DNA of 64,000 nucleotides from an uncultured Clostridium sp. (GTDB lineage Bacteria; Bacillota; Clostridia; Christensenellales; CAG-138), in contig CAYMPG010000003.1 of NCBI GenBank assembly GCA_964392455.1, positions 802-64,801 on the forward strand, written 5' to 3'. Below, one piece after another: positions 29,915 through 47,859 of this stretch (the first letter of the stretch is position 1; each line of letters starts with the position of its first letter). The notes beneath the pieces were generated by a model that had not been told where the DNA came from, ran no database searches, and saw only the letters and a program-made list of their open reading frames with translations. The position numbers and the translations under genes are program-made.

Positions 29915-30435
29915 ACGGCCTGATACACATCTACACCGGCGACGGCAAAGGCAAGACCACCGCAGCCCTCGGGCTGGCCATTCGGGCTGCAGGCTGTGGC
30001 AAGAGGGTGCTTATTGTGCAGTTTTTCAAGGGCAGAGATTGCGGAGAGCTGCACTCGCTGGAGCTGATTAAAAACATTTCCCTCCTCCGCCCCGAGGCCT
30101 GCCACGGCTTCTATAAGTACATGACCGACGACCAGCGAAAGGAAATATATCAGGAGCATACCCGGCTCCTTTCTCTTGCCCTGGAGCAGGCCCACAGCGG
30201 CACATTGGATATGCTCATACTGGATGAGGTAATGTCTGCCTATCAGCACGACGCAGTGGATACGACCATGGTAGACGCTCTGCTGCAAAGCAAGCCCGCC
30301 ACCCTTGAGCTTGTGCTGACAGGCCGTGATGCCCCTCCCCACTTCATAGCCATGGCTGACTATGTAACAGAAATGCACAAGGTAAAGCACCCCTACGATA
30401 GGGGCATTTCCGCAAGGGAGGGAATAGAATTTTGA
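29911..30435 (+). CDS. cobO: Cob(I)yrinic acid a,c-diamide adenosyltransferase (CobO/BtuR type)
   Basis: 'IHIYTGDGKGKTTAALGLAIRAAGCGKRVLIVQFFKG', 'LDE' and 'TGR.AP' are present. Confidence 0.9.
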   Translation: MNGLIHIYTGDGKGKTTAALGLAIRAAGCGKRVLIVQFFKGRDCGELHSLELIKNISLLRPEACHGFYKYMTDDQRKEIYQEHTRLLSLALEQAHSGTLDMLILDEVMSAYQHDAVDTTMVDALLQSKPATLELVLTGRDAPPHFIAMADYVTEMHKVKHPYDRGISAREGIEF

Positions 30436-31064
30436 CCCATAATATTGACAATATCTCCCCCGGAGATATTGAAAAGCGCAGCTTTGAGATCATCCAATCA
30501 GAGCTGCCCCATCCCCTGGACCCTGAGCTTGCCCCGATCATAAAGCGGGTGATACACGCCTCAGCGGATTTTGACTATGCCGATAATATGTATTTTTCCG
30601 ATAACGCCGTAAAGCACGCCCTTAGCGCCATACTTGAGGGCGCATGCATAGTTACCGATACAAACATGGCTAAGGGGGGAATAAATAAAAAAGCTTTGTC
30701 CAGGCACGGCGGAGAGGTATTCTGCTTTATGGCAGATGAGGACATACAGCTTTCTGCAAAGGCCAACGGCACCACCCGGGCAGCGGCCTCCATGGACAAG
30801 GCCTGCGCCATAGACCGGCCGCTGATATTCGCCATAGGCAATGCACCCACGGCGCTGATACGGCTGCACGAGCTGATTTCCGATGGCCGTATTTCCCCCC
30901 GGCTCATAATCGGCGCACCTGTTGGCTTTGTAAATGTCATTCCGGCGAAGGAGCTCATCATGGAGCTGGATACGCCCTGCATAGTTGCCCGGGGACGCAA
31001 GGGCGGCAGCAATATCGCCGCCGCAATATGCAATGCCCTGCTGTATATGCTGGGCCGGGAATAG
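30432..31064 (+). CDS. cbiC: Cobalt-precorrin-8 methylmutase CbiC
   Basis: TTG start. 'IEKRSFEII', 'VIHASADFDY', 'IGNAPTAL' and 'IIGAPVGFV' are present. Confidence 0.9.
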   Translation: MTHNIDNISPGDIEKRSFEIIQSELPHPLDPELAPIIKRVIHASADFDYADNMYFSDNAVKHALSAILEGACIVTDTNMAKGGINKKALSRHGGEVFCFMADEDIQLSAKANGTTRAAASMDKACAIDRPLIFAIGNAPTALIRLHELISDGRISPRLIIGAPVGFVNVIPAKELIMELDTPCIVARGRKGGSNIAAAICNALLYMLGRE

Positions 31065-31155
31065 CACAGCCTGCCGCTAAATTACATTCATCAGTGAAAT
31101 TTAGAACATTTTCCGCATATATTTAGCATACCAACTTGACGGAGGTGTTTAAATT

Positions 31156-31388
31156 TTGCGTATATTGGTGATCAGTAAGCGCACGCTCATAATTGCTGCC
31201 ATAGTTCTTCTGGTGCTCATCGTTGCCATCCTGCTGCTGCTCAGCTTCGCCCCCGATGCGGCTGCCGCCAGCTCACGCCCCATTGAGGAATACGAGCTGG
31301 AAGTCCTTGCAGGGCAAAAAAAAGAGCTGCCCATCTACAGCGTAGACCGCAGCGATAAAAAAATAGCCCTTACCATTGATGCAGCATG
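31156..31388 (+). pseudogene. 5' fragment (codons 1-77) of a split NodB-type, PdaB-like polysaccharide deacetylase gene
   Basis: The TTG start lies 8 nt after GGAGGTG. An N-terminal TM anchor is followed by 'PIYSVDRSDKKIALTIDAA'. After 31388 the frame continues into unrelated sequence for 7 codons and stops (31408-31410). The missing remainder is found at 43770..44345. Confidence 0.85.
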
Positions 31389-31407
31389 TGCTGCGGCTCA
31401 AATGTGG
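31368..31407. other. attL junction of the inserted element (crossover at or near TG 31387-31388)
   Basis: The host half is 'ccattgatgcagca', then TG, then the element half 'TGCTGCGGCTcaAATGTGG'. The 7 bp CAGCATG (31382-31388) is repeated at 43765-43771. Confidence 0.8.
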
Positions 31408-31424
31408 TAACCGCCGCCCATTAC

Positions 31425-31458
31425 AAAACCCCGCCGAATATCGGTGGGGGTATTTTTC
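31425..31458. terminator. Bidirectional hairpin terminator just inside the element's left end
   Basis: CCCCGCCGA (31429-31437) pairs with TCGGTGGGG (31441-31449). A T-run follows on the plus strand, and TTTTG follows on the minus strand. Confidence 0.6.
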
Positions 31459-31516
31459 TTTCCCTCGTCAAAGCACCTCTGCCCCAGCGTAAGGCCACTA
31501 ATGTGTCATCAAAATC

Positions 31517-32212
31517 GTTTAAGACCCCTCTGGAATTACACAGCTCTCAAACGCGGCGGCGTTCATGGCGTAGTATTCTACGGTTTAAGACCCCTCTGGA
31601 ATTACACAGCTCTCAAACATGACAAGCTCTTTCATGCGGACTTGCTTTGTTTAAGACCCCTCTGGAATTACACAGCTCTCAAACAGACGCTGGAAGAAGC
31701 AAGGGCACGCTTCGGTTTAAGACCCCTCTGGAATTACACAGCTCTCAAACTGCCGAGCCTTATGTTATCGAGAAAGATGAGTTTAAGACCCCTCTGGAAT
31801 TACACAGCTCTCAAACGGTGGCTGAGGCCGCTCCTCTTTCTCCGGTGTTTAAGACCCCTCTGGAATTACACAGCTCTCAAACGGAGCCATCCTTCCAAGC
31901 GAGCTTGACCCGGTTTAAGACCCCTCTGGAATTACACAGCTCTCAAACAAGAACTGAATATAACGAGCCTTAAAGAAAGTTTAAGACCCCTCTGGAATTA
32001 CACAGCTCTCAAACTATTTTTTATGCATTTTCTTTTTCTTATTTGTTTAAGACCCCTCTGGAATTACACAGCTCTCAAACAACCCCCCAAAGCACCTTCC
32101 GCATAGGCTCGTTTAAGACCCCTCTGGAATTACACAGCTCTCAAACGAGCCGACCTCTCAAAGGCTATCCGTGATGGTTTAAGACCCCTCTGGAATTACA
32201 CAGCTCTCAAAC
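31517..32212 (-). CRISPR. CRISPR array: 11 identical 36-bp repeats and 10 spacers of exactly 30 bp
   Basis: The plus-strand repeat is GTTTAAGACCCCTCTGGAATTACACAGCTCTCAAAC at 31517, 31583, 31649, 31715, 31781, 31847, 31913, 31979, 32045, 32111 and 32177. In the transcribed (minus) orientation it is GTTTGAGAGCTGTGTAATTCCAGAGGGGTCTTAAAC, a type II-A-like repeat. Confidence 0.98.
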
Positions 32213-32301
32213 CTCAAATTTGAAAATCGGCCCAGCCAGCCGTGTGTACTTCCAAAGGAACACCTGTGTCTTTATTATACTGTAAAACCATTCTTTTGCA
32301 A
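32213..32301 (-). promoter_or_regulatory. CRISPR leader with candidate promoter
   Basis: This is the 89-bp interval between the csn2 stop and the first repeat. On the minus strand, TTGCAA (32301-32296) is followed by a 16-nt spacer and TATAAT (32279-32274). Confidence 0.6.
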
Positions 32302-32967
32302 CTATATTTCACATAAATCCCTGTCTATAATTGTGCGCCGCTCACCGCTCAGCAGCGGATGCTCACTCCCCTCTATCATAAGTATTCTATGCTTGCGGGG
32401 GCATGTGGTATAAAAGAAATCTGTCAGCTCCTCATCTGAAAAATAGCTTCTTAAATTAACAAAGATAAACAGCTTTTCCCGCTCAAATTCTGCCACCATA
32501 TCCATATAGCTTATTATTGCATCAATATCATTTTCAGGTGCTTCCTCCACAGCAAGGTTTGCCTGTTTTAAAAAGGATGCTATGGTCAGCTTATCGCTAT
32601 CAAAGGTAAGCGGGTATTCTCCGCACAGCTCTGTCAGCAATTGCTCTATACCTGATAATACCAGGTGGTAGCGCTCAAAGTATTCGGATTCCATGGCCCT
32701 GCTCTCTATTTGGGATATTATACGGGTAAGCAGCGTCTTTTTATTGCAGGGGAAGGGAACTATCTCTGTAAACATTTCAGCGTGCTTTGAAATGCTCAGC
32801 AGCTTGCCTTCTGATGAAAGCACGCAGGTTCCCGGTTCATCACAAAGCTGACGGCGTATGTCCTTTATGAGGCTGCGGAAGGCACTTTGATTTTCAATCA
32901 CTATCGAGCAGGCGCAGCCTTCCTCAAGGGGTACAGGCGGGCTATATTGAGAAAAAAGCAGCTTCAA
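32302..32967 (-). CDS. csn2: Csn2 (type II-A adaptation protein)
   Basis: 221 aa, positioned after cas2 and before the array. 'KLFIFVNLRSYFSDEEL' parallels S. pyogenes Csn2 'KLLIFINSGAFLTKDEV'. Confidence 0.85.
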   Translation of the reverse strand: MKLLFSQYSPPVPLEEGCACSIVIENQSAFRSLIKDIRRQLCDEPGTCVLSSEGKLLSISKHAEMFTEIVPFPCNKKTLLTRIISQIESRAMESEYFERYHLVLSGIEQLLTELCGEYPLTFDSDKLTIASFLKQANLAVEEAPENDIDAIISYMDMVAEFEREKLFIFVNLRSYFSDEELTDFFYTTCPRKHRILMIEGSEHPLLSGERRTIIDRDLCEI

Positions 32968-33284
32968 AGAATCACCAGCCTTTCATCGCTAGTTACCACA
33001 TCTGTTTCAAGCCTGCCCACCAGATATTCCATGCCTGCGAATTGCTTTTCCGTAACGGTGAGCATCTGTACCAGGCCTGCCGGCGGCCTGTTTTTGCGTA
33101 CGGTATCCATTGCCGCCTTGCCTGCACCGGCATTTATCAGCAGGCGGCAGTATACCGACTCCTGCATCATTATAAACCCATTGCTTATCAGCGCCTTGCG
33201 AAAGCGCCGATAGTTTCGCCTGTCATCCGGCGTTTCTGTAGGCAGGTCAAAAAATACCAATACACGCATAAATCTGTAGCTCAT
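32964..33284 (-). CDS. cas2: Cas2
   Basis: 'MRVLVFFDLPTETPDDRRNYRRFRKALISNGFIMMQESVY' is typical of Cas2. It overlaps the cas1 stop and the csn2 start. Confidence 0.95.
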   Translation of the reverse strand: MSYRFMRVLVFFDLPTETPDDRRNYRRFRKALISNGFIMMQESVYCRLLINAGAGKAAMDTVRKNRPPAGLVQMLTVTEKQFAGMEYLVGRLETDVVTSDERLVIL

Positions 33285-34153
33285 AGCAGTGGAAACTTTA
33301 TTGCTTCAATGTCATCGCCGTTCAGTGCATCGAATACGCTCTTTGTGTATATCTTTATCGAATTGAGCACGGTCTGTTCGCTGCCATTTATGCTTACTGT
33401 ATCATTAAGCACAGCAATTACCCTGTGCTTTTCCTCAGGGCTAAAATCCCATAGCTCCATGGACAGCACCCTTTTATCTATTAGCGGCCGATATGGCTCC
33501 ATAAGGTCACAGCTCAGATTAAACTGATTGAACACATTGTCATGAAACAGCCCAAATTGCGTTAGATACCCATTTGCCGTCACCTCCCTGTTAAATACAG
33601 AAAGGATTATCCCGTAGCCATAATCCAGCGCCGCATTTATCGGATCCGGCGAAGCCCTTCTAACAAAGTCCATTCCAAACAGCCCATTGAAATAAACCTT
33701 CGCTGCATGGCCCTCCCTGTTTGTCACATCGCCAAATTCAATCTCCCCAATATATCTGGTCAGCTTATCCGCCTCGTTTTCCCTGCCGGCAGCCCGCAAT
33801 ACGCCTGCCTGGTTTTTAATCTTTTCTGTAACTATGGCCGTCCATACGTGGCCCTTGGTCAGGTCTGTCCACTGCATTTGCTGCTTTACCTTGCGTGAAG
33901 TATCGTGGCTGCCATAATACGGGCAAAGCTCTGCGGTGGGATTTCTTTTCCCATCGCAGAACACCACCCTTATCTTTTTATTCACCAGCTCGGATAACAG
34001 ATACCCCGTCATGGATACCGCAGTGCTTTCTATCATCAGCAGAGCAATCTCATCCATAAACACCCGCCTGGTCTCCTCGCCCCGTACCACAAGGTAGCCC
34101 ATTTTATAGTCCAGCTTGCATCTGCTGGAAATCACCACCGTGCGCCAGCTCAT
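33281..34153 (-). CDS. cas1: Cas1 (type II)
   Basis: 290 aa with 'GYLVVRGEE', 'NAALDYGYGIL' and 'HDNVFNQFNLSCDLMEPYRPLID'. Confidence 0.95.
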   Translation of the reverse strand: MSWRTVVISSRCKLDYKMGYLVVRGEETRRVFMDEIALLMIESTAVSMTGYLLSELVNKKIRVVFCDGKRNPTAELCPYYGSHDTSRKVKQQMQWTDLTKGHVWTAIVTEKIKNQAGVLRAAGRENEADKLTRYIGEIEFGDVTNREGHAAKVYFNGLFGMDFVRRASPDPINAALDYGYGIILSVFNREVTANGYLTQFGLFHDNVFNQFNLSCDLMEPYRPLIDKRVLSMELWDFSPEEKHRVIAVLNDTVSINGSEQTVLNSIKIYTKSVFDALNGDDIEAIKFPLL

Positions 34154-34157
34154 ATCT

Positions 34158-37100
34158 TTACAGCAGCGTCAGCAGGTTTATCGACGCCTTCTCATACAGA
34201 CCCGATGGCGATTGATCTATTATGCGAACGTCTGAGTAGCTCTTCTTCCAGTTCGAAAGGCTTGAGCTTAATGTAGGCACCCCTGCCTTTCCAACACCGC
34301 CTATGGCTGTAAAGTCACTTCCACCGCCATTCCTGCTGAATACAACAAGTATTTCAGACAGGATTTTAATTTGCTCATCAGGAGCTAAGCCAATAAACTT
34401 CTTCCGTCCGTTCACGAGCGTATCTATCACGTTGCTGACTGCAGGCCGCTTGTTGAATGGATATGCCGACAGCTTCTGCGTGAGCACATCGTATAGCTCT
34501 ATATTCTTTTCAGGTGTCAGCTTATCATAATCGGCATTCAGCTTGAGCTGCTGATTATCCCTGCGTTTATTCTGGAATGACTCTATGCGCTTAATGTATC
34601 TCTCATCCTCCGGCTCCAGCCGCAGCGGCATCAATGGTGATACAAGCAGCAGCTTTCCGCCGCTGGCTTTTCCGGACAGAGCCACACGGAAGCCGTCCAG
34701 CGACAGAATGGTATTTACCCTGAGTATGCGGGCTTCCATCGGCAATTCCACGCTATCAACAGCCTTGCCGATGACTTTTTCTATGGCCGCCCTGGTAACC
34801 TCTCTGGCTGCCGCATAGCTTTCAGCAAACTTTGCTGCCATTATCAGCTCAATAGGAACTATCATCAGCTCGCTTTTTTTACCCAGATAATACTTTGCCA
34901 GCACGAAGAACGTGGCTGTAGGCTTTCTGTATCCACCATACTTCTCAGGTGGCAGGTTGTTTTTGCGGGGCAGCAGTTCGCTTTTTAATGTAGCGCCCAT
35001 TGGCTGCTGATCATACAGCGAGCCTTTGCGGCAGAATGCATACCGTGTTACGTGGATATGGTTCTTCTGCACTATTCGCTTGACCCTGCCGATATCTGCC
35101 TCTCCGCGCCATACGCATCCGTTTTTCCCTACCGGATGGTCAAATATCTCCTTTGTCTTCATGCTGTATTTCTGATCCAGCCTGAAGTAGTTTTTATTGA
35201 ATTTTTCATGGTATACGTTGCCTACCACCACATTCAGGTAAGCATCCTTGGCATGGTGCAAATCATTCACCGTGCGGCATTTCAGCATTTCAAATTCATG
35301 ACGAAAATCAGCTACCAGCCCAGCCTTTACGTACACTATCTCGGTATCAGGATAACGCTCCTTAAGGATAGATGTGACTGCCTTGGTGGACTGTCGGGTC
35401 TCTACCAGCTGGCGCTGTATAAAGCCCATCAGCTCATCATCGGTAAACTGCGTGGTTCTGGTAAGCCTGCGATACTTTTCTTCGGTAATAAGATTCTTAT
35501 CATGCAGCTTTTTCCAGAACACGCCCATGCGGCTTCTTATATCCGCCTTAATCGGGTATTTGTCCCCTTTATCTCCGTTACACTCAGAACGACACAGCAC
35601 CTTGTTGTTGAGTATACTGTCATCCTTTACCTTGCACTGGGGATAAATGTGATCCACGTCATAGATTTTTTGATCCGATAAATGTTCCAGCGCAATAGGC
35701 TCCCCGCTATACATACACTTGCCCAGCTGCATAAAGTAAAGGTACAGCTTGTCGCTTTGCAGGGCGTTATCGTCCTTTGTCTCCAGCAGGTTTTTCAGTT
35801 CACGTACTTCGCTCTCACTAAACTCCTTATACGCTTCCAGTATCTGAGTGCGGCGTGACTTTGTGCGCTTTCCCTTTTGTTCCTCGTTGGCTCCCCGTGC
35901 CATTTCTACAAATATCCTGCTGGGTGGCGCTCCCAGGGCTTTCACAACGTCCTTTACCACATCAAGCGTGCGATATATCTGACGCCGTACCGTATTGGAT
36001 AAATACAGCTCATCCATCCGTTTGGACAGGCTCTTTGGGTTTTCTCTATAATACTCGGTTACTTCATTTTTGATATTATCTGCAAATGTGAACTTATCCG
36101 TCAGCAGCTCCATGATGGTATAGTTGGTTTCCCACATAGCCTGCAGCATGGTGAATACCTGGCCCGTACCCGAATTCCTTTCCATTCCTTCAATTTCACA
36201 GAGGAGTCTGCGTGAAAGCCTCCCGAAGTCCTTAAACTTCTGATTGGAAAGGTATTTGGCATCTTCCGTGCATATATTGGGAAATTCTTTTGATATCCAT
36301 CGGATAAAGCGTGCCTTGTCCTCGGTGCAGGTGATGCGCTCTATAATCTGCTCCGCCTGATCCACCGTTAGCATTCCTGCATCCAGGAGCTTCCGGAAAG
36401 CATGCCATGGTTGCAATGAAGACTTTATGCCCTCAGTATCCACTCCGCTCAGTATATCGGAGCTGAGCATGTATCCTTCGCTTATGCAGAACTCCTTCAG
36501 TGCTTTAAAGGTTACACGTTTTTTTCTTTCAAATAGCTCACGGTATATGCTTTGCTTCTGTTCTACAGTGATTGGGATGCCATTTATTTTTATAGGATTG
36601 ATTTCATTAAGAACAGTAAACTTTGTATAATACAGCGAATTCTTGGGCAATACATACTCCGAAGGGAGATATGTACAGCGGCCAATCATATTATGAATAA
36701 ACCTATCCTCGCTCTTGTCCAGATCCACCATATCCTCAAAATTCCACGGGTATATCCTGCCTGCCTTTCTTTCCAGCCAGGCATAGCTGCTGCGATTATT
36801 CAGCGGCCCTACATAGTATGGAATTCTAAACCTGAATACGGATATTATCTTTTCAGATACAGTAAGCCCGTCGCTATCCCTTTCCCTGAGAAATGGTAGA
36901 TATTGCTCTGCATTTTCCAGTATTTTCTTCAGCTCCACCAGATAAAGCTGATATGGTATGACACGGTTGTCTGTGTCCTTCTGCTTCGGCATAAATGTAT
37001 ACATCTCCAGCCGGGCAAGCATATCATCATATTCTGCTTTGTCAGCCTGCTGCACATCAATATTCTTTACTATTTTCTTTATATAATCGCAAAAGTCCGT

Positions 37101-38243
37101 TTTTTTCGCATATTTGTCCGTCTTCTTTCCTTTGCCAGAGGAATGGTGCGAATATGCACAGTAATTCTTTTCTGTTGCGTCATTAAACACTTCATCGTAT
37201 TTACCCGGTGCGTATTTTTTAACAAAGCCTTTTAGGTAAGCAAGGTCGGCTTTATGCTGCTGGTATATTTTTACCTTGGCGCTGGATATATACTTTTCCT
37301 CCTGAAGAACATCGGTAAGCACAGACCAATCGTACAATTCCTTCAGCTTGCGTACCAGCTCTGCATCATCGCCCAGCTGCATAAGTACAGACTCCAATTT
37401 CCCTTCATCGCCGCCGAGATCTATGGACTCAGCACTTGCATACTCGTCCGCCTTATGCGGGAAAAGCTTTCCCGGCATCACCTTGCCCCCGCACAAAAGC
37501 GATATCATGCCTGAGCGAGATATTATCGGAGCCGCCTTATCCTCATCATCAAGGTGCATATCGGTCGGCTTTTTGCCATCAAATAAAAGCTCATTAAATG
37601 CTTTCACCTTATCGCTTATGCGAAGCTTTGTTTTGAGTATGCGGGCAAAGTCCTCTACGTTACAATACCAGGGCTTTTCCCCATCAAACCAGTTTATAAA
37701 GCCATCATATATTTCGGATATATCAGTAGCAGCCTCTACGTTATCCTCGCTGACCGAGCTGAGAAAATGCCCTCTATGAGCCACCAGCCATGCACAAGCA
37801 ATATATACCAGCCTCACATCATGGGGTTCGTGTGATTCCATCAGGTCAACGATAAGGTGGTGAATAGTTGGATAGGCCTTATAATAGTCCTTTTCACTAT
37901 AGTCAGCATCATTAAAGTACACACCCTCAGAGCCGGTTGTGGACTTGTCCTCCTGCCATAATGCACTTTCGCGTATGCGGATGAAAAATTGCGGATCTTT
38001 AGCCGTTATCGGTACAGCTAACAATTCCTGAATAAGCTGTACCCGCTGCTTACGCCTATCAACACGCCGCCGTGCGGTACGATTTGCGCGGCGTTCTTCC
38101 GAAAGGGCGGCACTATCAAAAGTCATGACACCAGCCATGGGCTCTCCTTTAAATTTTTGGAGGTTGTATTCCGTATCGGTAACAGCATAGCCTACAGAGT
38201 CAGTGCCACAATCCAATCCCAGATAGTATTCTTTGTTTTTCAT
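34158..38243 (-). CDS. cas9: Cas9 (type II-A, 1361 aa), nuclease motifs intact
   Basis: RuvC-I is 'YYLGLDCGTDSVGYAV'. HNH is 'DVDHIYPQCKVKDDSILNNKVLCRSECNGDKGDKYP'. The RuvC-III region is 'NDLHHAKDAYLNVVVGN'. 'IPYYVGPL' is also present. Confidence 0.97.
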   Translation of the reverse strand: MKNKEYYLGLDCGTDSVGYAVTDTEYNLQKFKGEPMAGVMTFDSAALSEERRANRTARRRVDRRKQRVQLIQELLAVPITAKDPQFFIRIRESALWQEDKSTTGSEGVYFNDADYSEKDYYKAYPTIHHLIVDLMESHEPHDVRLVYIACAWLVAHRGHFLSSVSEDNVEAATDISEIYDGFINWFDGEKPWYCNVEDFARILKTKLRISDKVKAFNELLFDGKKPTDMHLDDEDKAAPIISRSGMISLLCGGKVMPGKLFPHKADEYASAESIDLGGDEGKLESVLMQLGDDAELVRKLKELYDWSVLTDVLQEEKYISSAKVKIYQQHKADLAYLKGFVKKYAPGKYDEVFNDATEKNYCAYSHHSSGKGKKTDKYAKKTDFCDYIKKIVKNIDVQQADKAEYDDMLARLEMYTFMPKQKDTDNRVIPYQLYLVELKKILENAEQYLPFLRERDSDGLTVSEKIISVFRFRIPYYVGPLNNRSSYAWLERKAGRIYPWNFEDMVDLDKSEDRFIHNMIGRCTYLPSEYVLPKNSLYYTKFTVLNEINPIKINGIPITVEQKQSIYRELFERKKRVTFKALKEFCISEGYMLSSDILSGVDTEGIKSSLQPWHAFRKLLDAGMLTVDQAEQIIERITCTEDKARFIRWISKEFPNICTEDAKYLSNQKFKDFGRLSRRLLCEIEGMERNSGTGQVFTMLQAMWETNYTIMELLTDKFTFADNIKNEVTEYYRENPKSLSKRMDELYLSNTVRRQIYRTLDVVKDVVKALGAPPSRIFVEMARGANEEQKGKRTKSRRTQILEAYKEFSESEVRELKNLLETKDDNALQSDKLYLYFMQLGKCMYSGEPIALEHLSDQKIYDVDHIYPQCKVKDDSILNNKVLCRSECNGDKGDKYPIKADIRSRMGVFWKKLHDKNLITEEKYRRLTRTTQFTDDELMGFIQRQLVETRQSTKAVTSILKERYPDTEIVYVKAGLVADFRHEFEMLKCRTVNDLHHAKDAYLNVVVGNVYHEKFNKNYFRLDQKYSMKTKEIFDHPVGKNGCVWRGEADIGRVKRIVQKNHIHVTRYAFCRKGSLYDQQPMGATLKSELLPRKNNLPPEKYGGYRKPTATFFVLAKYYLGKKSELMIVPIELIMAAKFAESYAAAREVTRAAIEKVIGKAVDSVELPMEARILRVNTILSLDGFRVALSGKASGGKLLLVSPLMPLRLEPEDERYIKRIESFQNKRRDNQQLKLNADYDKLTPEKNIELYDVLTQKLSAYPFNKRPAVSNVIDTLVNGRKKFIGLAPDEQIKILSEILVVFSRNGGGSDFTAIGGVGKAGVPTLSSSLSNWKKSYSDVRIIDQSPSGLYEKASINLLTLL

Positions 38244-38280
38244 ATTGACATCCTCCGGAAAGATATGGTATTTTGGTCAT

Positions 38281-38399
38281 GTAAGAACAGTCCCCTCTGG
38301 ACTTACACAGCAAGTTCAAATAAGATTTCATCGAAATCGTCAGCTTGTCTGACCGTACAAGAGTACGACTTAAAGATGCCCGATTGGGTGTCTTTTTTT
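38281..38399 (+). ncRNA. tracrRNA (divergent from cas9)
   Basis: The anti-repeat 'CCCCTCTGGACTTACACAGCAAGTTCAAATAAG' is complementary to the crRNA repeat with the usual bulge. It continues like the Sp tracrRNA 'AGCAAGTTAAAATAAGG'. It ends in the hairpin GCCCGATTGGGTG plus T7 (38392-38398). Upstream are TTGACA (38245-38250) and TGgTATTTT. Confidence 0.75.
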
Positions 38400-38698
38400 G
38401 TTTGTTTTCGCAGGGGTTCTTTCAGATAGACGGTTAATTCTTTTTTCGATATGGTAAGATGTGTGTTGATTATACTCTATTTTTCTCCATATCGCAACAA
38501 ATTATCTTGTGGCAGCTCGTATAATTTTGCTTTTATTTTACTCCTGTACATTTTTTCCTGTTCGGATGCATTTTATCAACAATTATAATGTATTTTTGTC
38601 AGGTAAGCACACAGCCCTAAAGCCGAACCCGAGCAGCCTATTTATGTGCCTTGAAAGGCGCTCCCCGCCATAACCATATTTTCCCTGTACTCCGGGCT

Positions 38699-40204
38699 TT
38701 ATTCGCCCCACCTGTAGCGTATTTGGACAACGCCATTTGGAAATACCTTTACACAATCAAGTATTATGCCTATCGTTGCCCGGTCCAGCTTTATAATGGC
38801 TCTTTCATTCGCCAGCCTGTTCAGCCACTGTGCTGTACAGGGAGCGCTTTCTTCTTCGCAGATGGTCTGCCGCAGCTTCTCCATGCGATGCTCCAGGGCT
38901 GCCTGAATTTCTGTAAATTCATTACGGTTCAGCTTATTATTCTTATATCTCTCATAGGCATACCGCTTATCCATGGCAAGGCCGGACATGGCAAGCGCCA
39001 GCGCTGCGAGGCTTTTCTCTTTTCTGCGCCGTGCGTCCTCTGCCATACTGCCGCATATACCGGCTACGTCTGCTTTTTCAATTAGGCGATTTACATCCTC
39101 CAGCACAATGCGGCTCAGCTTTGCTTCATATATTCTGTGGCTGCCGCAGGCACATGGCCCGCCAGTTTTATACCGTGTACAGAAATATGCCCCTCTACCA
39201 TGGTAATTTACCAGCTTCATCCTGCCGCCGCAGGCTCCGCAGTATATCAGCCCAGCGAAAAGGCTGCCTGACCCACGAAATGCCCTGCCAGTGCTGCGCC
39301 CGGCAAGCATTGCCTGCGCCTGCTCCCATTCCTGCCGCCCGATGATTGCGGGATGAGTATCCCGATGGATGATCCATCGCTCCCGTGGAATGGAGAAAGC
39401 CCTATCATGCATGCTGCTCTTTCTGCTTTTGCCTTCAGGCGTATCCCCTGCATATACAGGGTCACGCAGCAGCCTATCCACGGAAAATATGCTCCACGCC
39501 CAGTTTTTTGTATTGGGTGCAGCCCTTTTATAAAACCCGCTTTCTGCCCGCCTTACCCCCGGGCAGGGTATTTCCCGCCGGTTCAGTTCGCTTGCAATGG
39601 CGGTTTTGCCCATGCCCCCAAGATACATGGCGTATATCTGCCTTACAGTTTCGCTGTCGCCATTTGGAATAAGGCTGCCATCTCCACCGGCTGCTTTGTC
39701 ATAGCCATACGGCGGCGATGGGCAAAGGTACTTCCCCTGGGCTCTGCGGGTGCTTAAGGCCGTACGCACCTTTTTTGAAATATCCTCTGCATACTGGGCA
39801 TTCATAAGGTTAACAACTGGAAGCCTTATGCCATCATATGGGCTCGTGACGCTATCCATATTGTCATTGATGGCGATAAAGCGCACGCCAAGGCGGGGAA
39901 ATACCCGCTCAAGATATTCACCCGCCAGTATAAGGTCGCGGCCAAAGCGGCTAAGGTCCTTTACCACCACGCAATCTATGCAGCCCGCCTCGATATCCCG
40001 AATCATCTCATTAAAGGCAGGCCGGTCAAAGCATACGCCGGAATAGCCATCATCGGAATAATGCCCTGCTATGCTCAGCTCTTCGCTGCGGAGGCAATAC
40101 TCCTCCAGTAGCTGCCGCTGCACCCGTATGCTTTCGCTGGGCGCATCCTCCCCATCCTCCCTGGATACCCTTTCATACAGAGCCGCCCTGTATACCTTCT
40201 GCAT
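38699..40204 (-). CDS. Large serine recombinase (501 aa)
   Basis: The N-terminal resolvase domain has 'AALYERVSREDG..SIRVQRQLL..DDGYSG' and 'VVVKDLSRFGRD'. A recombinase domain and the zinc ribbon 'CGACGGRM..FCTRY..CACGSHRI' follow. The C-terminal coiled-coil tail is TnpX/TndX-like. Confidence 0.9.
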   Translation of the reverse strand: MQKVYRAALYERVSREDGEDAPSESIRVQRQLLEEYCLRSEELSIAGHYSDDGYSGVCFDRPAFNEMIRDIEAGCIDCVVVKDLSRFGRDLILAGEYLERVFPRLGVRFIAINDNMDSVTSPYDGIRLPVVNLMNAQYAEDISKKVRTALSTRRAQGKYLCPSPPYGYDKAAGGDGSLIPNGDSETVRQIYAMYLGGMGKTAIASELNRREIPCPGVRRAESGFYKRAAPNTKNWAWSIFSVDRLLRDPVYAGDTPEGKSRKSSMHDRAFSIPRERWIIHRDTHPAIIGRQEWEQAQAMLAGRSTGRAFRGSGSLFAGLIYCGACGGRMKLVNYHGRGAYFCTRYKTGGPCACGSHRIYEAKLSRIVLEDVNRLIEKADVAGICGSMAEDARRRKEKSLAALALAMSGLAMDKRYAYERYKNNKLNRNEFTEIQAALEHRMEKLRQTICEEESAPCTAQWLNRLANERAIIKLDRATIGIILDCVKVFPNGVVQIRYRWGE

Positions 40205-40206
40205 GG

Positions 40207-41778
40207 CTATGCATCATCCCGAGAGCAGGCCCCGGCAATATCCGAAAAGCGATAGCATATCTTTACACAGTCATCATTGTACACATATATGCCCTCCACC
40301 GTTGCAGCAAGCGTCACCCGGTCCAGCGATTCTATTCGCCTCTGCTCAATGAGCTGTCCTGCCCATTTTTTACTTGGCAGGGCTTGCTGCTCCACAATCT
40401 CATTCTCCACCTGTAGCTGCCGCCTGAGGGCTTCCTCGCCTGCCTCATACTCTGCCCTGTATGAAATATAATCCTCGCCGGAAAGCAGCCCGGCCTTATA
40501 ATCCTCATAAAGGCTGCGGCGCAGTCTCTCCATTCGCTCAATGGATTTTTGTATCCGCTCTTTTTCTGCCGTGTGCCGGGTGGGCGGCACTGTCTTTGGT
40601 ATTCTTATGCTGCTCATATCAGGTATGGCTTCAAGCATGGAGTTCAGATCGCCAAGTAATATGGCCGCCACAGTGCTGCGCCATATCCTGCTGCCGGAAC
40701 AGGCCCCTGTGCCATATCGCTCATAGCTGCCGCAGGAATATTTCGCCTTTTCCCCCTTGCCACGGGACACCATGCTCCGGCCGCACAGCCCGCATTTTAT
40801 AAAGCCCCTGAGCGGATCCTCCAGCACGGGGCCATGGCTCCTCTCCCTCACCTTAAGCAGCCGCTGTACCCTCTCCCACTGTTCAGCCGAGACCACCGGG
40901 TCATGGGTGTTTTGCTTAACTATCCATTTATCCCGCTCCTGCAGCCGGGCTTTGCCATGCATGGCTGGCCGGCAGTACTTTCCCTGCACCATGTGGCCTG
41001 CATATACGGGATTGCACAGTATCCTGTGAATGGTGGAATACGTCCAGTAGGTGGTACCATCCAGCTTAAGTCCGTTTTTATAGTTTTCCCCCATAAGCCG
41101 CTTGTATTGGCTGGGGCAGGGTATACCCTCATCATTCAGTCGACGGGCAATGGCATCCTTGCCCTGGCCCCCTTCAAACATATCGTATATCCTCCTCACC
41201 ACCCCTGCTGCCCCCTCGTCAATCACAAGATGGCTATGGGCCTCAGGGTCACGGCAATAGCCATAGCTGCAAAACGCCCCTATAAACTCACCCCGTCTGC
41301 GCCTTGTGTCGAAGGAGCTCCTTATCTTCCCGGAAATATCCCTGGCGTATTGAGAATTGAATATATTCTTTATTGGCAGCATCATGTCATATGCTCCATT
41401 GATGCTGTCCACATTGTCATTTATGGCGATAAAGCGCACGCCCTTCTGGGGCAATATGCGCTCAAGATACCTGCCGGTATCTATATAATCCCTGCCAAAG
41501 CGGCTCAAATCCTTTACGATGATACAGTTTATCCTGCCTTCCTCCACAGCCTCCATCATCTGCCTGAATGCAGGCCGTTCAAAGCTGGTGCCGGTAAAGC
41601 CGTCATCCACATAGTGGCAGGCTATCTCCATATCCTCCGCCTGATGGCAGTAGCTTTCCAGCATATTTAGCTGGCTGGTAATGCTGTCGCTCTCCGCCTT
41701 ATCCCCATCCTCACGGGAGAGCCTTGCGTACAATCCGCATCTGTAAATCTGCCGCCCGGGCTTTGCCATATCCTGCAC
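40207..41778 (-). CDS. Large serine recombinase (523 aa), tandem paralogue
   Basis: 'CGLYARLSREDGDKAESDSITSQLNML..DDGFTG', 'IIVKDLSRFGRD' and the zinc ribbon 'CGLCGRSM..YSCGSY..GACSGSRI' are present. Its stop is 2 nt before the downstream recombinase start. Confidence 0.9.
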   Translation of the reverse strand: MQDMAKPGRQIYRCGLYARLSREDGDKAESDSITSQLNMLESYCHQAEDMEIACHYVDDGFTGTSFERPAFRQMMEAVEEGRINCIIVKDLSRFGRDYIDTGRYLERILPQKGVRFIAINDNVDSINGAYDMMLPIKNIFNSQYARDISGKIRSSFDTRRRRGEFIGAFCSYGYCRDPEAHSHLVIDEGAAGVVRRIYDMFEGGQGKDAIARRLNDEGIPCPSQYKRLMGENYKNGLKLDGTTYWTYSTIHRILCNPVYAGHMVQGKYCRPAMHGKARLQERDKWIVKQNTHDPVVSAEQWERVQRLLKVRERSHGPVLEDPLRGFIKCGLCGRSMVSRGKGEKAKYSCGSYERYGTGACSGSRIWRSTVAAILLGDLNSMLEAIPDMSSIRIPKTVPPTRHTAEKERIQKSIERMERLRRSLYEDYKAGLLSGEDYISYRAEYEAGEEALRRQLQVENEIVEQQALPSKKWAGQLIEQRRIESLDRVTLAATVEGIYVYNDDCVKICYRFSDIAGACSRDDA

Positions 41779-41781
41779 AGA

Positions 41782-41913
41782 TTATGCCTCCGGCTGCCTG
41801 TCCTGGTGGGCCTTTATCAGCTCTATCACCACCTGCTCAGGGCTCTTTTCGCCGGAAAAAAACCTTACCACCTTTATGCCGCCTTCCATTTCATCGTTTG
41901 CCCGGGTATCCAT
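41782..41913 (-). CDS. Small ORF (43 aa) immediately upstream of the recombinase pair; possible directionality/accessory factor
   Basis: The product is 'MDTRANDEMEGGIKVVRFFSGEKSPEQVVIELIKAHQDRQPEA'. GGAGGAGG lies about 7 nt before the ATG, and the stop is 3 nt before the recombinase ATG. It is below the ORF-track length cutoff and was found by hand translation. Confidence 0.45.
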   Translation of the reverse strand: MDTRANDEMEGGIKVVRFFSGEKSPEQVVIELIKAHQDRQPEA

Positions 41914-42014
41914 AGAGCGCCTCCTCCTTTTTTCTTTTATAAATCTCTATTTCGCCCATACGGCCCATATGAATGGTTTCACAAATAAAATCCCTGGCCT
42001 GTGCTGTTTATATG

Positions 42015-42050
42015 CAAAAACCCCACGGGCTGCATTTGCACCCATGGGGC
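42015..42050 (-). terminator. Rho-independent terminator after the cNMP-binding genes
   Basis: On the minus strand, CCCCATGGG-loop-CCCGTGGGG is followed by TTTTTG. Confidence 0.65.
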
Positions 42051-42085
42051 TTTGCTAAATTCAATGGGCTGTCTACGGGCTGGGG

Positions 42086-42586
42086 TCAGTATATGCGCCC
42101 ATTGATGTATGTATCCGATATGGCCTCCACATAGTCGTTTATAAACTTGCCAACCTTTTCCCAGAACATTCCCTCCCGGGGCTTATCTTCCTCCTCCTTC
42201 TTTACGGCCTCTGCCACCGCCCGGCAGGTCTCCAGGTAATCTCTGGTAAGCTCCCGCGTGCGCCGGCTCAGGTTTTTCATAATGCACAGCAGCGCCTCAG
42301 GGTCATCTCCAAAGTAATCTGCAAAGGCCTCCCCGGTGACCAGCCTGGTTTCAACATCATCCAGCGCAACTGCCGTGGCAGATCGGCGCATGGAGTCCAC
42401 CAGGCCAATTATGCCCACAGTGGCGCCGGGGCCGCCCTTTACCTCGGTAAGCTTGAATTCATCCGGCATGCCGTAGTTTTTATATATGCCCACCGTGCCG
42501 CTTCGCAGGTCATACATCCACATTTCGAAGCTGCCCTCTTTATATATGACATCGCCCTTTTTAAACAGGCGGGTGGTATCTTCCAT
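42086..42586 (-). CDS. Cyclic-nucleotide-binding-domain protein without a DNA-binding domain (166 aa)
   Basis: 'FKKGDVIYKEGSFEMWMYDLRSGTVGIY..VGIIGLVDSMRRSATAVAL' is a Crp-like beta-barrel. It is followed only by a helical tail. ATG at 42586 lies 1 nt after the upstream stop. Confidence 0.75.
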   Translation of the reverse strand: MEDTTRLFKKGDVIYKEGSFEMWMYDLRSGTVGIYKNYGMPDEFKLTEVKGGPGATVGIIGLVDSMRRSATAVALDDVETRLVTGEAFADYFGDDPEALLCIMKNLSRRTRELTRDYLETCRAVAEAVKKEEEDKPREGMFWEKVGKFINDYVEAISDTYINGRIY

Positions 42587-42587
42587 T

Positions 42588-43013
42588 TTACTTTTCCTCC
42601 ACTGCCTTTTCCCCTTGTGAGCTAAGAGCCTCTGCAAGGGCACTGCGGGCCTCCATGTAATCTCTGGTGATATCACGGATGCGCCTGCACATATTCTGTA
42701 TAATATCCACCACCCTCTCAGGCCGCTCATTCAGATAAAACCTGAAGGTCTCTCTTGTGATTATCTCAAGCCTCGTTTCCCCATCCATGGCTATTGCCGT
42801 GGCGCTGTGAGGCACCTGATCCACAAAGCTCATTTCTCCAAACACCTCATCGCCACGGCGCAGAGCCAGCATTTTTTCATTCTCCGTGCCGTAGTCCACA
42901 TATATGCCCACGCTGCCCCAGCGTATATCATACATACACTCGGCAGGCTCTCCCTGCCTGAATATTATCTCTCCCTTTTTATAGGTTCTATATTCCCTGC
43001 TTGATGCTGCCAC
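42588..43013 (-). CDS. Cyclic-nucleotide-binding-domain protein without a DNA-binding domain (141 aa), paralogue
   Basis: 'YKKGEIIFRQGEPAECMYDIRWGSVGIYV..FGEMSFVDQVPHSATAIAM' is present. It shares the helix 'RRIRDITRDYMEA' (versus 'RRTRELTRDYLET') with its paralogue. The GTG start is uncertain. Confidence 0.7.
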   Translation of the reverse strand: MAASSREYRTYKKGEIIFRQGEPAECMYDIRWGSVGIYVDYGTENEKMLALRRGDEVFGEMSFVDQVPHSATAIAMDGETRLEIITRETFRFYLNERPERVVDIIQNMCRRIRDITRDYMEARSALAEALSSQGEKAVEEK

Positions 43014-43058
43014 CCTGCAAATTCCTGCCTTTCATAATGCTGCCTGTCAAATGCCCTT

Positions 43059-43592
43059 TTACACGCGCCTGCCCATATCATAGGCATCCGCCATGGCCTT
43101 TGTACCCTTTATTTCTCCCTTTTCATAAACGCCCATGCCGCATATCACGCCCATTTCCCTTGCGCCCTCTATGCAGTCAGCATAGCCTCTCAGGCAGGCC
43201 AGCGGCGTATCCGCAGAAGCCAGCTCCTCATCCGCCGCAGTCACTATATAATACAGATCCTTGTCCTTTACCTCAGTCCAGCGGGCGACAGTTCTATCAA
43301 TAAGTGCCTTAAGCTGGGCGCTGATGGAATAAAAGTAGACGGGGCTTGCAAGCAGGATAACATCTGCATCTATCATCTTTTGCAGCACCTGACCCATATC
43401 GTCATCTATAACGCAGCTTCCTTTTTTACAGGCATAGCAGCCCCTGCAAAACCCTATATTTTTCTCGGCCACCCTTATCTTCTCCACGGTATGGCCCATT
43501 TCCATTGCACCCCGCATAAATTCATCGCAGAGCATATCAGAATTGCCGCCCTTTCGGGGACTGCCGGACAGTATCAATACATTTTTACCCAT
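43059..43592 (-). CDS. Flavodoxin-like fold NAD(P)H-dependent FMN reductase/iron-sulfur flavoprotein family protein
   Basis: 'KNVLILSGSPRKGGNS' and 'DADVILLASPVYFYSISAQLKALIDR' are present. GGAGG lies 8 nt before the ATG at 43592. Confidence 0.8.
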   Translation of the reverse strand: MGKNVLILSGSPRKGGNSDMLCDEFMRGAMEMGHTVEKIRVAEKNIGFCRGCYACKKGSCVIDDDMGQVLQKMIDADVILLASPVYFYSISAQLKALIDRTVARWTEVKDKDLYYIVTAADEELASADTPLACLRGYADCIEGAREMGVICGMGVYEKGEIKGTKAMADAYDMGRRV

Positions 43593-43661
43593 TTTATTGC
43601 CTCCACTTATCATACTGGCTGCATCACACAGCCTCTGCCCCCATAGCTCGAGCGCACCTTA

Positions 43662-43691
43662 AATATACAATGAAACGCCTCTGCATTTCAA
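43662..43691 (-). promoter_or_regulatory. Candidate promoter for the flavodoxin/cNMP operon, just inside attR
   Basis: On the minus strand, TTGAAA (43691-43686) is followed by an 18-nt spacer ending in TG and then TATATT (43667-43662). Confidence 0.5.
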
Positions 43692-43744
43692 CAGTCTTCC
43701 GTCTGAAGCCTGTCTTAAAATGCCCCATATTCCATACATGCTTT

Positions 43745-43785
43745 TCCATCCACATTATCAGCCTCAGCATGGGAAGACGACAAGA
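43745..43785. other. attR junction of the inserted element (crossover at or near TG 43770-43771)
   Basis: The element half is 'CCACATTatcAGCCTCAGCA', then TG, then the host half 'ggaagacgacaag', which resumes the deacetylase reading frame. Confidence 0.8.
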
Positions 43786-44345
43786 CTCCATTCATACTGG
43801 AAACGCTGGATAAATACGGCATAAAGGCCACATTCTTCCTCTGCGGTTTTTGGGTGGAGGCATACCCCGATGAGGTAAAGCAGATATTCGAGGCCGGCCA
43901 CCAGCTTGGCAATCATACCTCCACTCACCCTCACATGAACCAGCTCTCGGTCTCCGAGATAAAAAAGGAGCTCACCCATTTTGACGACATGGTGGAAAAG
44001 CTCACCGGCCAGCGCACCACCGCCTTTAGAGCCCCCTACGGCGAATATAACGACACCGTTATCACCACCGTAAGGGATATGGGGTATGAAGTATACCAGT
44101 GGAGCATTGACACCATCGACTGGCGGGAGGAGCGCAGCGCACAGACCATACTGGATACGGTGCTGCCAAAGCTGCACGATGGCTGCATAATCCTCTGCCA
44201 CAACAATGGCTATAAAATAAAGGAGTATCTTCCTGCGCTCATTGAAGCAGCCCAGGGACAGGGATACAAATTCGTTACGGTAAGCGAGCTCACGCTCAGC
44301 GGCAATACCATAATAGATGTAAACGGGGTGCAGAAGGCGGCATAA
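43770..44345 (+). pseudogene. 3' fragment (191 codons) of the split PdaB-like polysaccharide deacetylase gene
   Basis: The frame reads 'WEDDKTPFILETLDKYGIKATFFLCGFWVEAYPDEV..GHQLGNHTSTHPHM..RAPYGEYN..WSIDTIDW..ILCHN'. These are NodB motifs 2-5. The in-frame stop upstream at 43704-43706 lies inside element sequence. The ORF-track ATG at 43854 is internal. Confidence 0.85.
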
Positions 44346-44731
44346 TAGTCTCCCCCACTATATCGTCCAAACGCAGTCACATTATTGCTGCAAAGTAGCC
44401 TGTTTGTCACTTTATAGGAAGGGGCTGGAATACTCTTCCAGTCCCTAGATATGTTCTTAAATAAATCTGCGGCCAGTCATGGGCTGCCTCCCACCTCAGA
44501 TTATCCACAACATTATCCGGAGCTTTACCTTGTCTTTATACTAATAAACAGAGAACGTCATGTCTTTTTTCGGCAGCATGCACAAATAATCTTCTAACGG
44601 CAGCTTCGAAATACGCATATAGCCAGCAATGCCTATTACCACATATATCTGAACAAACTCAAAAGGAGCGTCCCTTTATGACACTCCTTTTTTATTTCTA
44701 ACTGTCAGCACATGGTCTAATAATAATATCC

Positions 44732-45682: not shown

Positions 45683-45775
45683 GTACTCTCCCCCCACCCA
45701 TTAAGACACGCAAGCCCCGGTATGCCCGAGGCTTGCAAACCTGTTCTGTAATTTTTATTCTTTCACAATTTACCC

Positions 45776-46765: not shown

Positions 46766-46775
46766 GAGTGCCTCC

Positions 46776-47816: not shown

Positions 47817-47859
47817 ATCTTTATATCCTTTCTCGTATTTTAGAGTTTACTTTCGTACT

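Follow-up and report, generated by a model that had tools for sequence, protein, structure and literature searches.

We analyzed a 64-kb stretch of the metagenome-assembled contig CAYMPG010000003.1, from an uncultured gut member of the Clostridia; this whole stretch is here called the window. Within it, a gene for a PdaB-like polysaccharide deacetylase is interrupted by 12.4 kb of DNA that encodes two large serine recombinases (LSRs) and a CRISPR-Cas9 system. We regard it as nearly certain that an LSR element carrying CRISPR-Cas9 sits in this gene. Our preferred explanation, which we consider probable, is that a non-phage, LSR-mobilized gene-intervening element occupies codon Trp78 of a spore cortex deacetylase gene and is excised, probably in the sporulating mother cell. 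Known sporulation gene-intervening elements include skin in sigK (B. subtilis and C. difficile), SPbeta in spsM and vfbin in spoVFB, and further vrin in spoVR, yin in yabG and gin in gerE of B. cereus ATCC 10987 (PMC5595907, PMC4191935, PMC5025042, PMC10747680).

A deacetylase gene in two parts

The first-pass annotation had described an open reading frame (ORF) that starts at 31156, codes for a membrane anchor and stops 7 codons into unrelated sequence, with the rest of a NodB deacetylase in frame from 43770, about 12.4 kb further on. Reading of the sequence confirmed both halves. The truncated ORF (31156..31410, plus strand) has a TTG start behind the ribosome-binding site (RBS) GGAGGTG at 31141-31147 and encodes the anchor followed by ...PIYSVDRSDKKIALTIDAA, after which the unrelated codons lead to the stop at 31410. 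The downstream frame reads WEDDKTPFILETLDKYGIKATFF...NHTSTHPHM... and ends at the stop at 44345. When 31388 was joined to 43772 in silico, we obtained an 807-nt ORF of the predicted 268 codons. The annotation had named a failure of the joined protein to align end to end with intact deacetylases as the outcome that would tell against it; the protein aligned with intact relatives over 100% of its length, at 84-87% identity. The joined DNA is colinear with the intact allele of a sister species (locus L003), with no indel at the junction. As in the known sporulation gene-intervening elements, joining the flanks gives one complete ORF.

Against Pfam, the joined protein matched Polysacc_deac_1 (E = 2e-38). 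In a comparison with the sporulation deacetylase models, which had also been proposed, TIGR02764 (PdaB) was the best NCBIfam match and was covered over positions 1-190 of 191, but the score of 201.2 bits did not reach the cut-off of 237.4. Among solved structures, the best matches were CE4 deacetylases, with TIDA replacing TIDD/TFDD. The break falls three codons past the equivalent of motif 1 (TIDA|AW|EDD, versus TIDDAW in PDB 6hm9). The annotation had placed it inside catalytic motif 1; the vicinity was right, but the break lies next to the motif.

Both junctions carry the 7-bp direct repeat CAGCATG, and the insert is therefore 12,383 bp long. Put together, the two ends form an attP, CCACATTATCAGCCTCAGCA-TG-TGCTGCGGCTCAAATGTGG, whose arms are reverse complementary at 17 of 20 positions about a nonpalindromic TG; 0 of 5000 shuffles reached this score. 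Quasi-palindromic arms about a short crossover are the usual anatomy of an LSR attP. The gene flanks at the insertion form an attB of lower symmetry. Since both ends jointly form an LSR-type attP, we conclude that the 12.4 kb is a single recombinase-delimited unit, and the earlier view that everything between the halves is an insertion holds. Judging from the att sequences, recombination of attL with attR at the TG would restore the Trp78 codon exactly. The right-end stretch that includes attR is absent from L003, and the attR junction is kept exactly in two other contigs (L009 and L010). A short common core with inverted-repeat arms is a second feature of sporulation gene-intervening elements found here, and a recombinase of their own is a third: LSR-A and LSR-B both contain Resolvase, Recombinase and Zn_ribbon_recom domains. 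Their genes stand in tandem, with the CRISPR-Cas module between LSR-A and attL.

Recurrence, age and selection

Four other sequencing runs contained the identical 84-aa truncated 5' ORF, its read-through into the element included. The attR side (LSR-B, the cyclic nucleotide monophosphate [cNMP]-binding protein genes, the flavin mononucleotide [FMN] reductase gene and the 3' part) recurred in two runs, as did the cas9-csn2/LSR-A segment. Junctions were base-identical in at least four other samples. Because attL was recovered in four independent assemblies and attR in two, the split does not stem from misassembly. As the source contig (104.5 kb) was assembled from a metagenome, faulty assembly or binning might have produced a chimera joining a CRISPR-Cas island to the deacetylase gene. 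However, both junctions recur base-exact in independent assemblies from four other runs, and the two ends make a matched attP; we consider a chimera refuted by these independent contigs and give it virtually no credence.

One other sample is nearly identical to the window, and the rest belong to a variant lineage with 5-6% DNA divergence. Between the window and this lineage, identity is 92-98% in the element genes and 94-95% in the flanks, and the dS ranges match (0.06-0.33 in the element versus 0.02-0.19 in the flanks). That the divergence of the element matches that of its flanks argues for one old insertion that has been inherited vertically. The 5' part differs from that of the variant by 3 synonymous and 0 nonsynonymous changes. 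The 3' part differs by 17 and 3, respectively (dN/dS 0.044), with no stop or frameshift, so the halves, which had been described as undamaged in the window, are undamaged across this divergence as well. For both halves together, 20 synonymous changes stand against 3 nonsynonymous ones (dN/dS about 0.04), and the neutral probability of at most 3 nonsynonymous changes in 23 is 1.1e-10. Purifying selection was also evident within the element (dN/dS versus the variant strain: cas9, 0.135; LSR-B, 0.13; LSR-A, 0.23).

A lineage that has diverged by about 5% thus has the same junctions, and the halves are under purifying selection; hence, the insertion is old and the gene is still used. The first-pass annotation had offered a recent or a reversible insertion as the options, and these data favor the reversible one over the recent one. 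A gene so long split whose evolution is that of a working gene has to be expressed after rejoining, which implies precise excision. We consider it quite likely that the gene is functionally rebuilt by excision.

Might the fragments instead work while split, as separate polypeptides, by complementation, or with an element promoter driving the 3' part? The element arm of the variant strain contains an in-frame ATG that lengthens the 3' ORF to 208 aa (P0243). In the window, however, a 1-nt indel puts this extension out of frame. The extension is not conserved, and independent expression of the 3' part is for this reason unlikely. Moreover, the first strand, which bears the catalytic Asp, is missing from the 3' part, as is any membrane anchor or export signal, and the 5' part finishes in 7 unrelated codons. 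We regard functional fragments as highly improbable.

A plain disruptive insertion was also weighed, in which a dispensable deacetylase was knocked out, no excision is programmed, and the halves are intact because the insertions are recent. Several facts agree with it. The excision product was not observed in assembly collections; without a directionality factor, of which none was identified, integration by an LSR is normally stable; and several NodB deacetylases are usual in Bacillota, so that one could be dispensable. Against it stand the 20:3 ratio between two lineages that both have the insertion and the matching dS of element and flanks, which argues for one old vertical insertion. In addition, many distant deacetylase genes are occupied at this site, with their 3' parts still open reading frames. 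Disruption without excision therefore seems improbable to us.

The annotation had called for a search for the uninterrupted allele. An exact search of the GTDB representative genomes with its 40-nt virtual junction found nothing. The exact joined protein was absent from 15 billion proteins, which held no intact allele of the species, and shorter attB and attP junctions had no match in IMG/VR. The closest intact allele (87% identity) comes from another species, and intact alleles are known solely from other species. Because no intact allele of this species appeared among the 15 billion proteins, the element looks fixed while the gene has been kept.

Sporulation context and proposed mechanism

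Upstream of the deacetylase orthologues, 37-57 nt before the start codon, we found the box GCATAWA in 34 of 45 cases and CATA in 45 of 45; such a box occurs in 1.6% of random 55-nt windows. Promoters of sigmaE and sigmaK have a common -10 box (e.g., CATATAAT), and three polysaccharide deacetylases of C. difficile are under sigmaE control (Saujet et al., PMC3789822). The box upstream of the deacetylase gene is a putative mother-cell -10 element of the sigmaE/sigmaK type, and any assignment to a particular sigma factor is tentative. In B. subtilis, pdaB (spoVIE) belongs to the sigmaE regulon, and its loss lowers sporulation to 5% (PMC4703394).

In the loci of 22 relatives, spoIIID lies 3-7 kb from the deacetylase gene, and about nine have a sigK-like gene in the vicinity. 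One complete chromosome, OY762936.1 (labelled Christensenellaceae; L097, the same as L033), encodes, at 911-2904 and 6685-6942, a 472-aa LSR followed by a 164-aa ORF that comprises regions 3-4 only of a sigma-70-family (sigK-like) factor; spoIIID is 4 kb away and the deacetylase gene 7 kb. From its sequence, this arrangement looks like a split sigK of the skin type. Given the spoIIID and sigK-like neighbors and the skin-like locus, we conclude that the clade sporulates and already uses such a rearrangement; the window's own organism, by extension from these relatives, presumably sporulates too. The best model (PdaB), the conserved -10 box, the spoIIID and sigK-like neighbors in relatives and the analogy with pdaB together make the target a putative sporulation gene of the mother-cell type.

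We propose the following scheme. In vegetative cells and in the germ line (the forespore), the gene would be split, and the element with its immune system would be passed on vertically. An LSR would then recombine attL with attR at the common TG; this would most likely be LSR-B with a directionality factor, perhaps with the participation of LSR-A and of orf43, a 43-aa ORF directly upstream of LSR-B. Recombination would free a 12.4-kb circle bearing attP and restore the 268-codon gene. By analogy with skin, SPbeta, vfbin, gin and yin, this would most likely take place during sporulation in the mother cell, a terminally differentiated cell, and the spore would retain the element. That excision happens, what catalyzes it and when it occurs are all predictions from the DNA. 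We lean, by a little, toward excision that is specific to the mother cell. A complete adaptive immune system (CRISPR-Cas9, array and tracrRNA) as part of developmentally eliminated DNA, with dispersal of the circle, is a tentative extension that we hold to be rather doubtful.

Reversible excision need not be tied to the mother cell. It might be stochastic or signal driven in growing cells, so that the element would act as a heritable deacetylase switch in the style of "active lysogeny" and as a horizontal vehicle for CRISPR-Cas9, with the cells that lose it also losing immunity. Consistent with this, no sporulation promoter was found for the LSR operon, and the circular permutation between L003 and the window (see below) suggests past germ line excision and reintegration. 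The C. botulinum element yin is excised at all growth stages (PMC10747680), and SCCmec-borne CRISPR-Cas is excised in growing staphylococci (PMC10434264). However, the site was occupied in 5 of 5 samples of the species with no intact allele on record, whereas frequent germ line loss should leave empty sites. The putative mother-cell-type promoter on the target gene would also mean that rebuilding is needed only in the mother cell. We consider such a switch unlikely.

Several points weigh against programmed excision from a sporulation gene. Neither an excised circle (attP) nor a rejoined attB of the species was present in the collections searched, which hold assemblies and not reads. No directionality factor was recognizable: orf43 matched no Pfam, PHROG or PADLOC family, and dN/dS, calculated from few substitutions, is about 1 for it. 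A GCATATA box on the minus strand at 42015 was considered as a sporulation promoter of the LSR operon and dropped, as it is not kept in the variant strain; nothing else convincing as a conserved sporulation-type promoter was found upstream of the operon. The 64-kb window holds no other sporulation gene, its genes being for cobalamin, transport and sugars. The joined protein, at 201 bits, is under the PdaB equivalog cut-off of 237 and is classed as a PdaB-like CE4/NodB deacetylase, not as PdaB. Finally, because LSR integration is site specific, independent acquisition of related elements by both strains could in principle mimic vertical coinheritance.

Cargo, relatives and significance of the element

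All element genes lie on the minus strand, with the tracrRNA candidate as the sole exception on the plus strand (Table 1). A cas9-cas1-cas2-csn2 operon, an array and an anti-repeat tracrRNA candidate make this a type II-A CRISPR-Cas system, which from its sequence is complete and apparently working. The tracrRNA candidate was found by hand, and its anti-repeat/repeat duplex has a predicted energy of -42.9 kcal/mol; an Rfam scan of 31000-44600 at E values up to 0.1, tracrRNA model included, gave no match. The 11 CRISPR repeats are all identical, the leader-distal copy included, and the gap between array and attL is only about 130 bp; the leader-distal repeat of an array is commonly degenerate. 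No protospacer was found for the ten spacers among INPHARED phages or for three of them in IMG/VR, and no spacer was found to target the window or the fetched loci. The G+C content of the CRISPR-Cas module is 46.5%, lower than in the LSR genes (53%) or the left flank (54.5%).

We rejected a prophage or defective prophage, as the scanned ORFs included no phage structural, packaging, lysis or replication genes. The PHROG scan, which covered the ORFs other than cas9, cas1 and cas2, matched the two LSRs (integrase family) and nothing else; csn2 and the other non-cas ORFs had no match. Since only the recombinases match a phage family, we conclude that the element is not a prophage. A Pycsar-like defence role for the two cNMP-binding proteins was rejected as well: the PADLOC matches to Pycsar/TIR effectors were weak (E = 1e-4 to 6e-9) and confined to the cNMP domain. 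A plasmid comparison with the element's right half gave short common stretches only, and a search of IMG/VR with LSR-B alone as the query found no relatives. Homologues of orf43, 43-45 aa long (..R.FSGE.SPEQV..ELIKAH.., aligned as ..FSGE+SPEQV..ELIKAH..), always stand immediately upstream of LSR-B-type recombinase genes (L006 9842-9979, L008 3874-4008 and L019 417-545).

A profile search for LSR-B relatives returned 80 metagenomic loci at 35-53% identity. Fifteen of the 80 contain the 3' part of a NodB deacetylase gene (36-43% identity) that starts at the same Trp codon (...|TGG GGN AAY GAR GAY), either directly downstream of the LSR or on the opposite strand with cargo between, as in the window. 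Using the expected dyad symmetry of attP, we delimited four complete siblings of 6,852 bp (L147), 7,508 bp (L107), 9,662 bp (L115) and 9,834 bp (L106); in all four, the 5' part ends ...SFDAA|W. Their cargo is non-phage (a GT8 glycosyltransferase, a sulfatase-domain protein, TrkH/TrkA, AAA ATPases, DUF4869 and a YgjP-like peptidase), and none of the sibling pda-splitting elements carries cas9. LSR-B is orthologous to the single LSRs of these siblings and is thus the likely integrase for the att site.

The closest sibling, L008, shares the tandem arrangement of the two LSRs (58% and 43% identity) and the small upstream ORF. A 78-aa pda 5' half lies just past its LSR-A homologue in the same orientation, with an att arm, AGCTGAGGGCTGATTGCGGTAATAA, similar to that of the window. 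It has helicase and ParB genes instead of the cNMP and FMN reductase genes, and its interval between LSR-A and attL contains no genes and no CRISPR-Cas. That interval, from the LSR-A homologue's stop to attL (7100-7400), contains six copies of a ATTAACATGATTTT-like motif about 40 bp apart; these might be protein-binding sites, and the window has its CRISPR-Cas module at the equivalent position. Because the siblings, L008 included, lack CRISPR-Cas, we conclude that the CRISPR-Cas9 module is a lineage-specific add-on. The nearest Cas9 relatives (L098, 71% identity; L099, 63%) lie in ordinary contexts with no serine recombinases or split genes. A general linkage of CRISPR-Cas9 with LSRs, absent there, was therefore rejected, and the association is specific to this lineage. 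In all, 16 further contigs have an LSR-B relative beside a deacetylase gene that is broken at this Trp codon. The pda-intervening elements appear to be a widespread and apparently undescribed family, in which only the present member carries CRISPR-Cas9.

The same deacetylase family has a second insertion hotspot, at which homology ends inside a W-D-V-D-S-L-D-W motif in five loci. In L106 and L107, a distant LSR (24-26% identity) lies about 4 kb beyond it, and L100 and L101 are 99% identical up to it and then differ by the second insertion. Owing to this hotspot, some deacetylase genes are split in three. At L055 480-1141 (metagenome-assembled genome [MAG] JAZNUG01, contig 212; another species, 85% protein identity), a different element lies within 15 bp of the window's site (..AAG|ATTGATGCGGCCTGGGAGG..), and a Y-family DNA polymerase gene fragment stands at its end. 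The same MAG also holds an intact allele (L017, 90.8% DNA identity); since split and intact alleles are both there, two strains are mixed in this bin. In L019 (1-2400 and 9897), the deacetylase gene is intact, and an LSR-B homologue (73% identity) with the small ORF lies 10 kb upstream. The cargo of L019 is shared with L006 (84% DNA identity), and synteny with L001 starts only 100 bp before the gene start.

Table 1. Coordinates of features in the window and of the second hotspot in other loci
Feature	Position	Strand	Description
Cobalamin cluster	cbiK, cbiD 15146-17836; others from 22239		cobB, cobT, cobU, cobS, cbiB, cobD, cobQ, cobO, cbiC from 22239
Putative mother-cell (sigmaE/K-type) promoter of deacetylase gene	31095..31123	+	-35-like TGAAATT 31095-31101, 14-nt spacer, -10 CATATATT 31116-31123
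5' part, PdaB-like deacetylase gene	31156..31388	+	77 codons and the TG of Trp78; comprises membrane anchor, linker, start of NodB domain
attL	31382..31410		Core CAGCATG 31382-31388, crossover TG 31387-31388, then element arm P' TGCTGCGGCTCAAATGTGGTAACC; conserved in L013-L016
G+C-rich hairpin	31425..31458		T/A runs on each side, by sequence reading; likely bidirectional terminator of the truncated 5' transcript and the pre-crRNA
CRISPR array	31517..32212	-	11 identical 36-nt repeats (crRNA sense GTTTGAGAGCTGTGTAATTCCAGAGGGGTCTTAAAC), 10 spacers of 30 nt; leader 32213-32301
csn2 (221 aa)	32302..32967	-	TIGR01866, 149 bits (cut-off 35)
cas2 (106 aa)	32964..33284	-	TIGR01573, 66 bits (cut-off 24.5)
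cas1, type II (290 aa)	33281..34153	-	TIGR03639, 294 bits (cut-off 120)
cas9 (1361 aa)	34158..38243	-	TIGR01865, 901 bits, above cut-off; bridge helix, REC, HNH, RuvC, PI (Pfam)
Candidate tracrRNA	38285..38399	+	Anti-repeat, three hairpins, U-tract; divergent from cas9; conserved in L011, L012
LSR-A (501 aa)	38699..40204	-	Resolvase, Recombinase, Zn_ribbon_recom; phrog_95 integrase
LSR-B (523 aa)	40207..41778	-	Resolvase, Recombinase, Zn_ribbon_recom; PHROG integrase family
orf43 (43 aa)	41782..41913	-	Strong RBS; directly upstream of LSR-B; speculative candidate for accessory/directionality factor
Two stand-alone cNMP-binding proteins	42086-42586 (166 aa), 42588-43013 (141 aa)	-	PF00027
Flavodoxin-like NAD(P)H-dependent FMN reductase (177-184 aa)	43059..43613	-	PF03358
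Element right end and attR	43695..43771		Arm P ..CCACATTATCAGCCTCAGCA, core CAGCATG 43765-43771, crossover TG 43770-43771
3' part, PdaB-like deacetylase gene	43770..44345	+	Trp78 to stop, 191 codons; remaining NodB domain
Third CAGCATG (S3)	44574..44580		Possible secondary attachment site, weak: the 7-mer occurs 26 times in the window
Predicted junctions of excision			attB CCCTTACCATTGATGCAGCATGGGAAGACGACAAGACTCC; attP CCACATTATCAGCCTCAGCATGTGCTGCGGCTCAAATGTGG; from sequence
Second-hotspot loci	L100 4346-4400, L102 14998-15040, L106 12517-12560, L107 12284-12330, L115 12522-12560		End of homology

In the sister species (L003), the cobalamin operon is syntenic with that of the window at 73% DNA identity, and the intact deacetylase gene precedes three xanthine-dehydrogenase-like genes, the pair of cNMP genes, the FMN reductase gene and a ROK region. 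The 1.6 kb of the element that holds the two cNMP genes and the FMN reductase gene is homologous to L003 12756-14266, which lies outside the intact gene there. In the window, this block lies inside the element, and the 3' gene part stands between the block and the ROK region, so the gene order from cbiC to ROK is circularly permuted between the two. Homology of the block to L003 stops 77 bp before attR, and those 77 bp are the attP arm. The third CAGCATG (S3) aligns with the point in L003 (..CAACAGCATGTGCAAAT.., about 14380-14405) at which the block abuts the ROK side. Since the block lies outside the intact gene in L003, the history comprises more than one simple insertion. Several one-step recombination schemes for capture of the block failed. 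Speculatively, the element was excised, reintegrated a short way past the gene at a secondary site and later decayed there in the L003 lineage; only excision with second-site reintegration fits the permutation, and L003 must then have undergone extra deletions. For the block, capture of host genes, the opposite direction, is a possible alternative.

On the left, the cobalamin cluster (15146-31064) ends 92 bp before the deacetylase gene. Directly after the deacetylase stop comes a 13.5-kb block (44347-57873; 47.7% G+C) of ROK regulator/kinase, sugar-phosphate isomerase-type, oxidoreductase and transporter-like genes. This block is missing from the variant strain, whose contigs L009 and L010 resume at window position 57874. 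Because 44499-47165 is 86.5% similar to L003, compared with 73-80% for the backbone, we suggest that the block is a separately exchanged island.

Among known systems, gin, which is not a prophage, is closest: like the present element, it lacks phage genes and encodes more than one serine recombinase. With the skin/SPbeta/gin class as a whole, the element shares a position inside a coding sequence, here of a gene putatively of the mother-cell sporulation type, an encoded LSR, a short att core with inverted arms and an excision that would restore the ORF. It differs in its target, PdaB-like here but sigK, spsM, spoVFB, spoVR, gerE or yabG in the elements listed, and in its complete CRISPR-Cas9 cargo, neither a deacetylase target nor CRISPR being mentioned in any of PMC5595907, PMC4191935, PMC5025042 and PMC10747680. 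It differs also in its uncultured gut Clostridia host, in which we infer excision and its timing from sequence. A full-text literature search for polysaccharide deacetylases with attB or serine integrases returned nothing relevant.

Staphylococcal cassettes of the SCCmec type carry type III-A CRISPR-Cas or other defences and are moved by the CcrAB/CcrC LSRs (PMC10434264, PMC11470126). They resemble the present element as non-phage, LSR-moved cassettes with adaptive immunity, moved by a pair of LSRs in the case of CcrAB; the CRISPR type differs (III-A there, II-A here). SCCmec integrates at the 3' end of rlmH (orfX) and splits no gene that must be rebuilt. LSR-A and LSR-B were rejected as CcrA, CcrB or CcrC, with 40-113 bits against equivalog cut-offs of 700-900. 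Excision of the fdxN element of Anabaena, which is heterocyst specific, is similar in that an LSR (XisF; NCBIfam NF041201) cuts the element out of a gene that only terminally differentiated cells need. That system is cyanobacterial and has another target gene, and LSR-A and LSR-B (104-106 bits versus a cut-off of 375) are not XisF orthologues. The chromosomal type II-A loci of Clostridia (L098 and L099) have the same cas9-cas1-cas2-csn2 order and domain set, but they are not flanked by serine recombinases or split genes, whereas here a low-G+C module lies within a putatively excisable unit.

The kind of element is therefore known (skin, gin and others); what is new is the target gene, an apparently large family in gut Clostridia and the cargo. 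To our knowledge, this is the first case in which a segment with predicted excision has a complete CRISPR-Cas9 system. A PdaB-like cortex deacetylase, cut at one conserved Trp codon, would become a new target for the rebuilding of genes by programmed excision, and the host range would widen to uncultured gut Clostridia, where such elements are numerous in human gut metagenomes and not oddities of a single strain. In practical terms, the family offers LSRs with a defined, conserved natural attB and a matched attP, together with a compact Cas9 and its tracrRNA. For annotation, it urges caution, as "pseudogenized" sporulation genes in MAGs may be split by design.

The CRISPR-Cas9 cargo would tie the inheritance and mobility of an immune system to a developmental switch. 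If the proposed scheme is true, the mother cell would drop CRISPR-Cas9 as a 12.4-kb circle at each sporulation to rebuild a spore cortex gene, while the spore would keep the locus. Lysis of the mother cell would then free the circle, with its attP, integrase and immune system, beside relatives, all of which have a deacetylase gene with the conserved attB. In this way, the sporulation switch would also serve to disperse CRISPR-Cas9.

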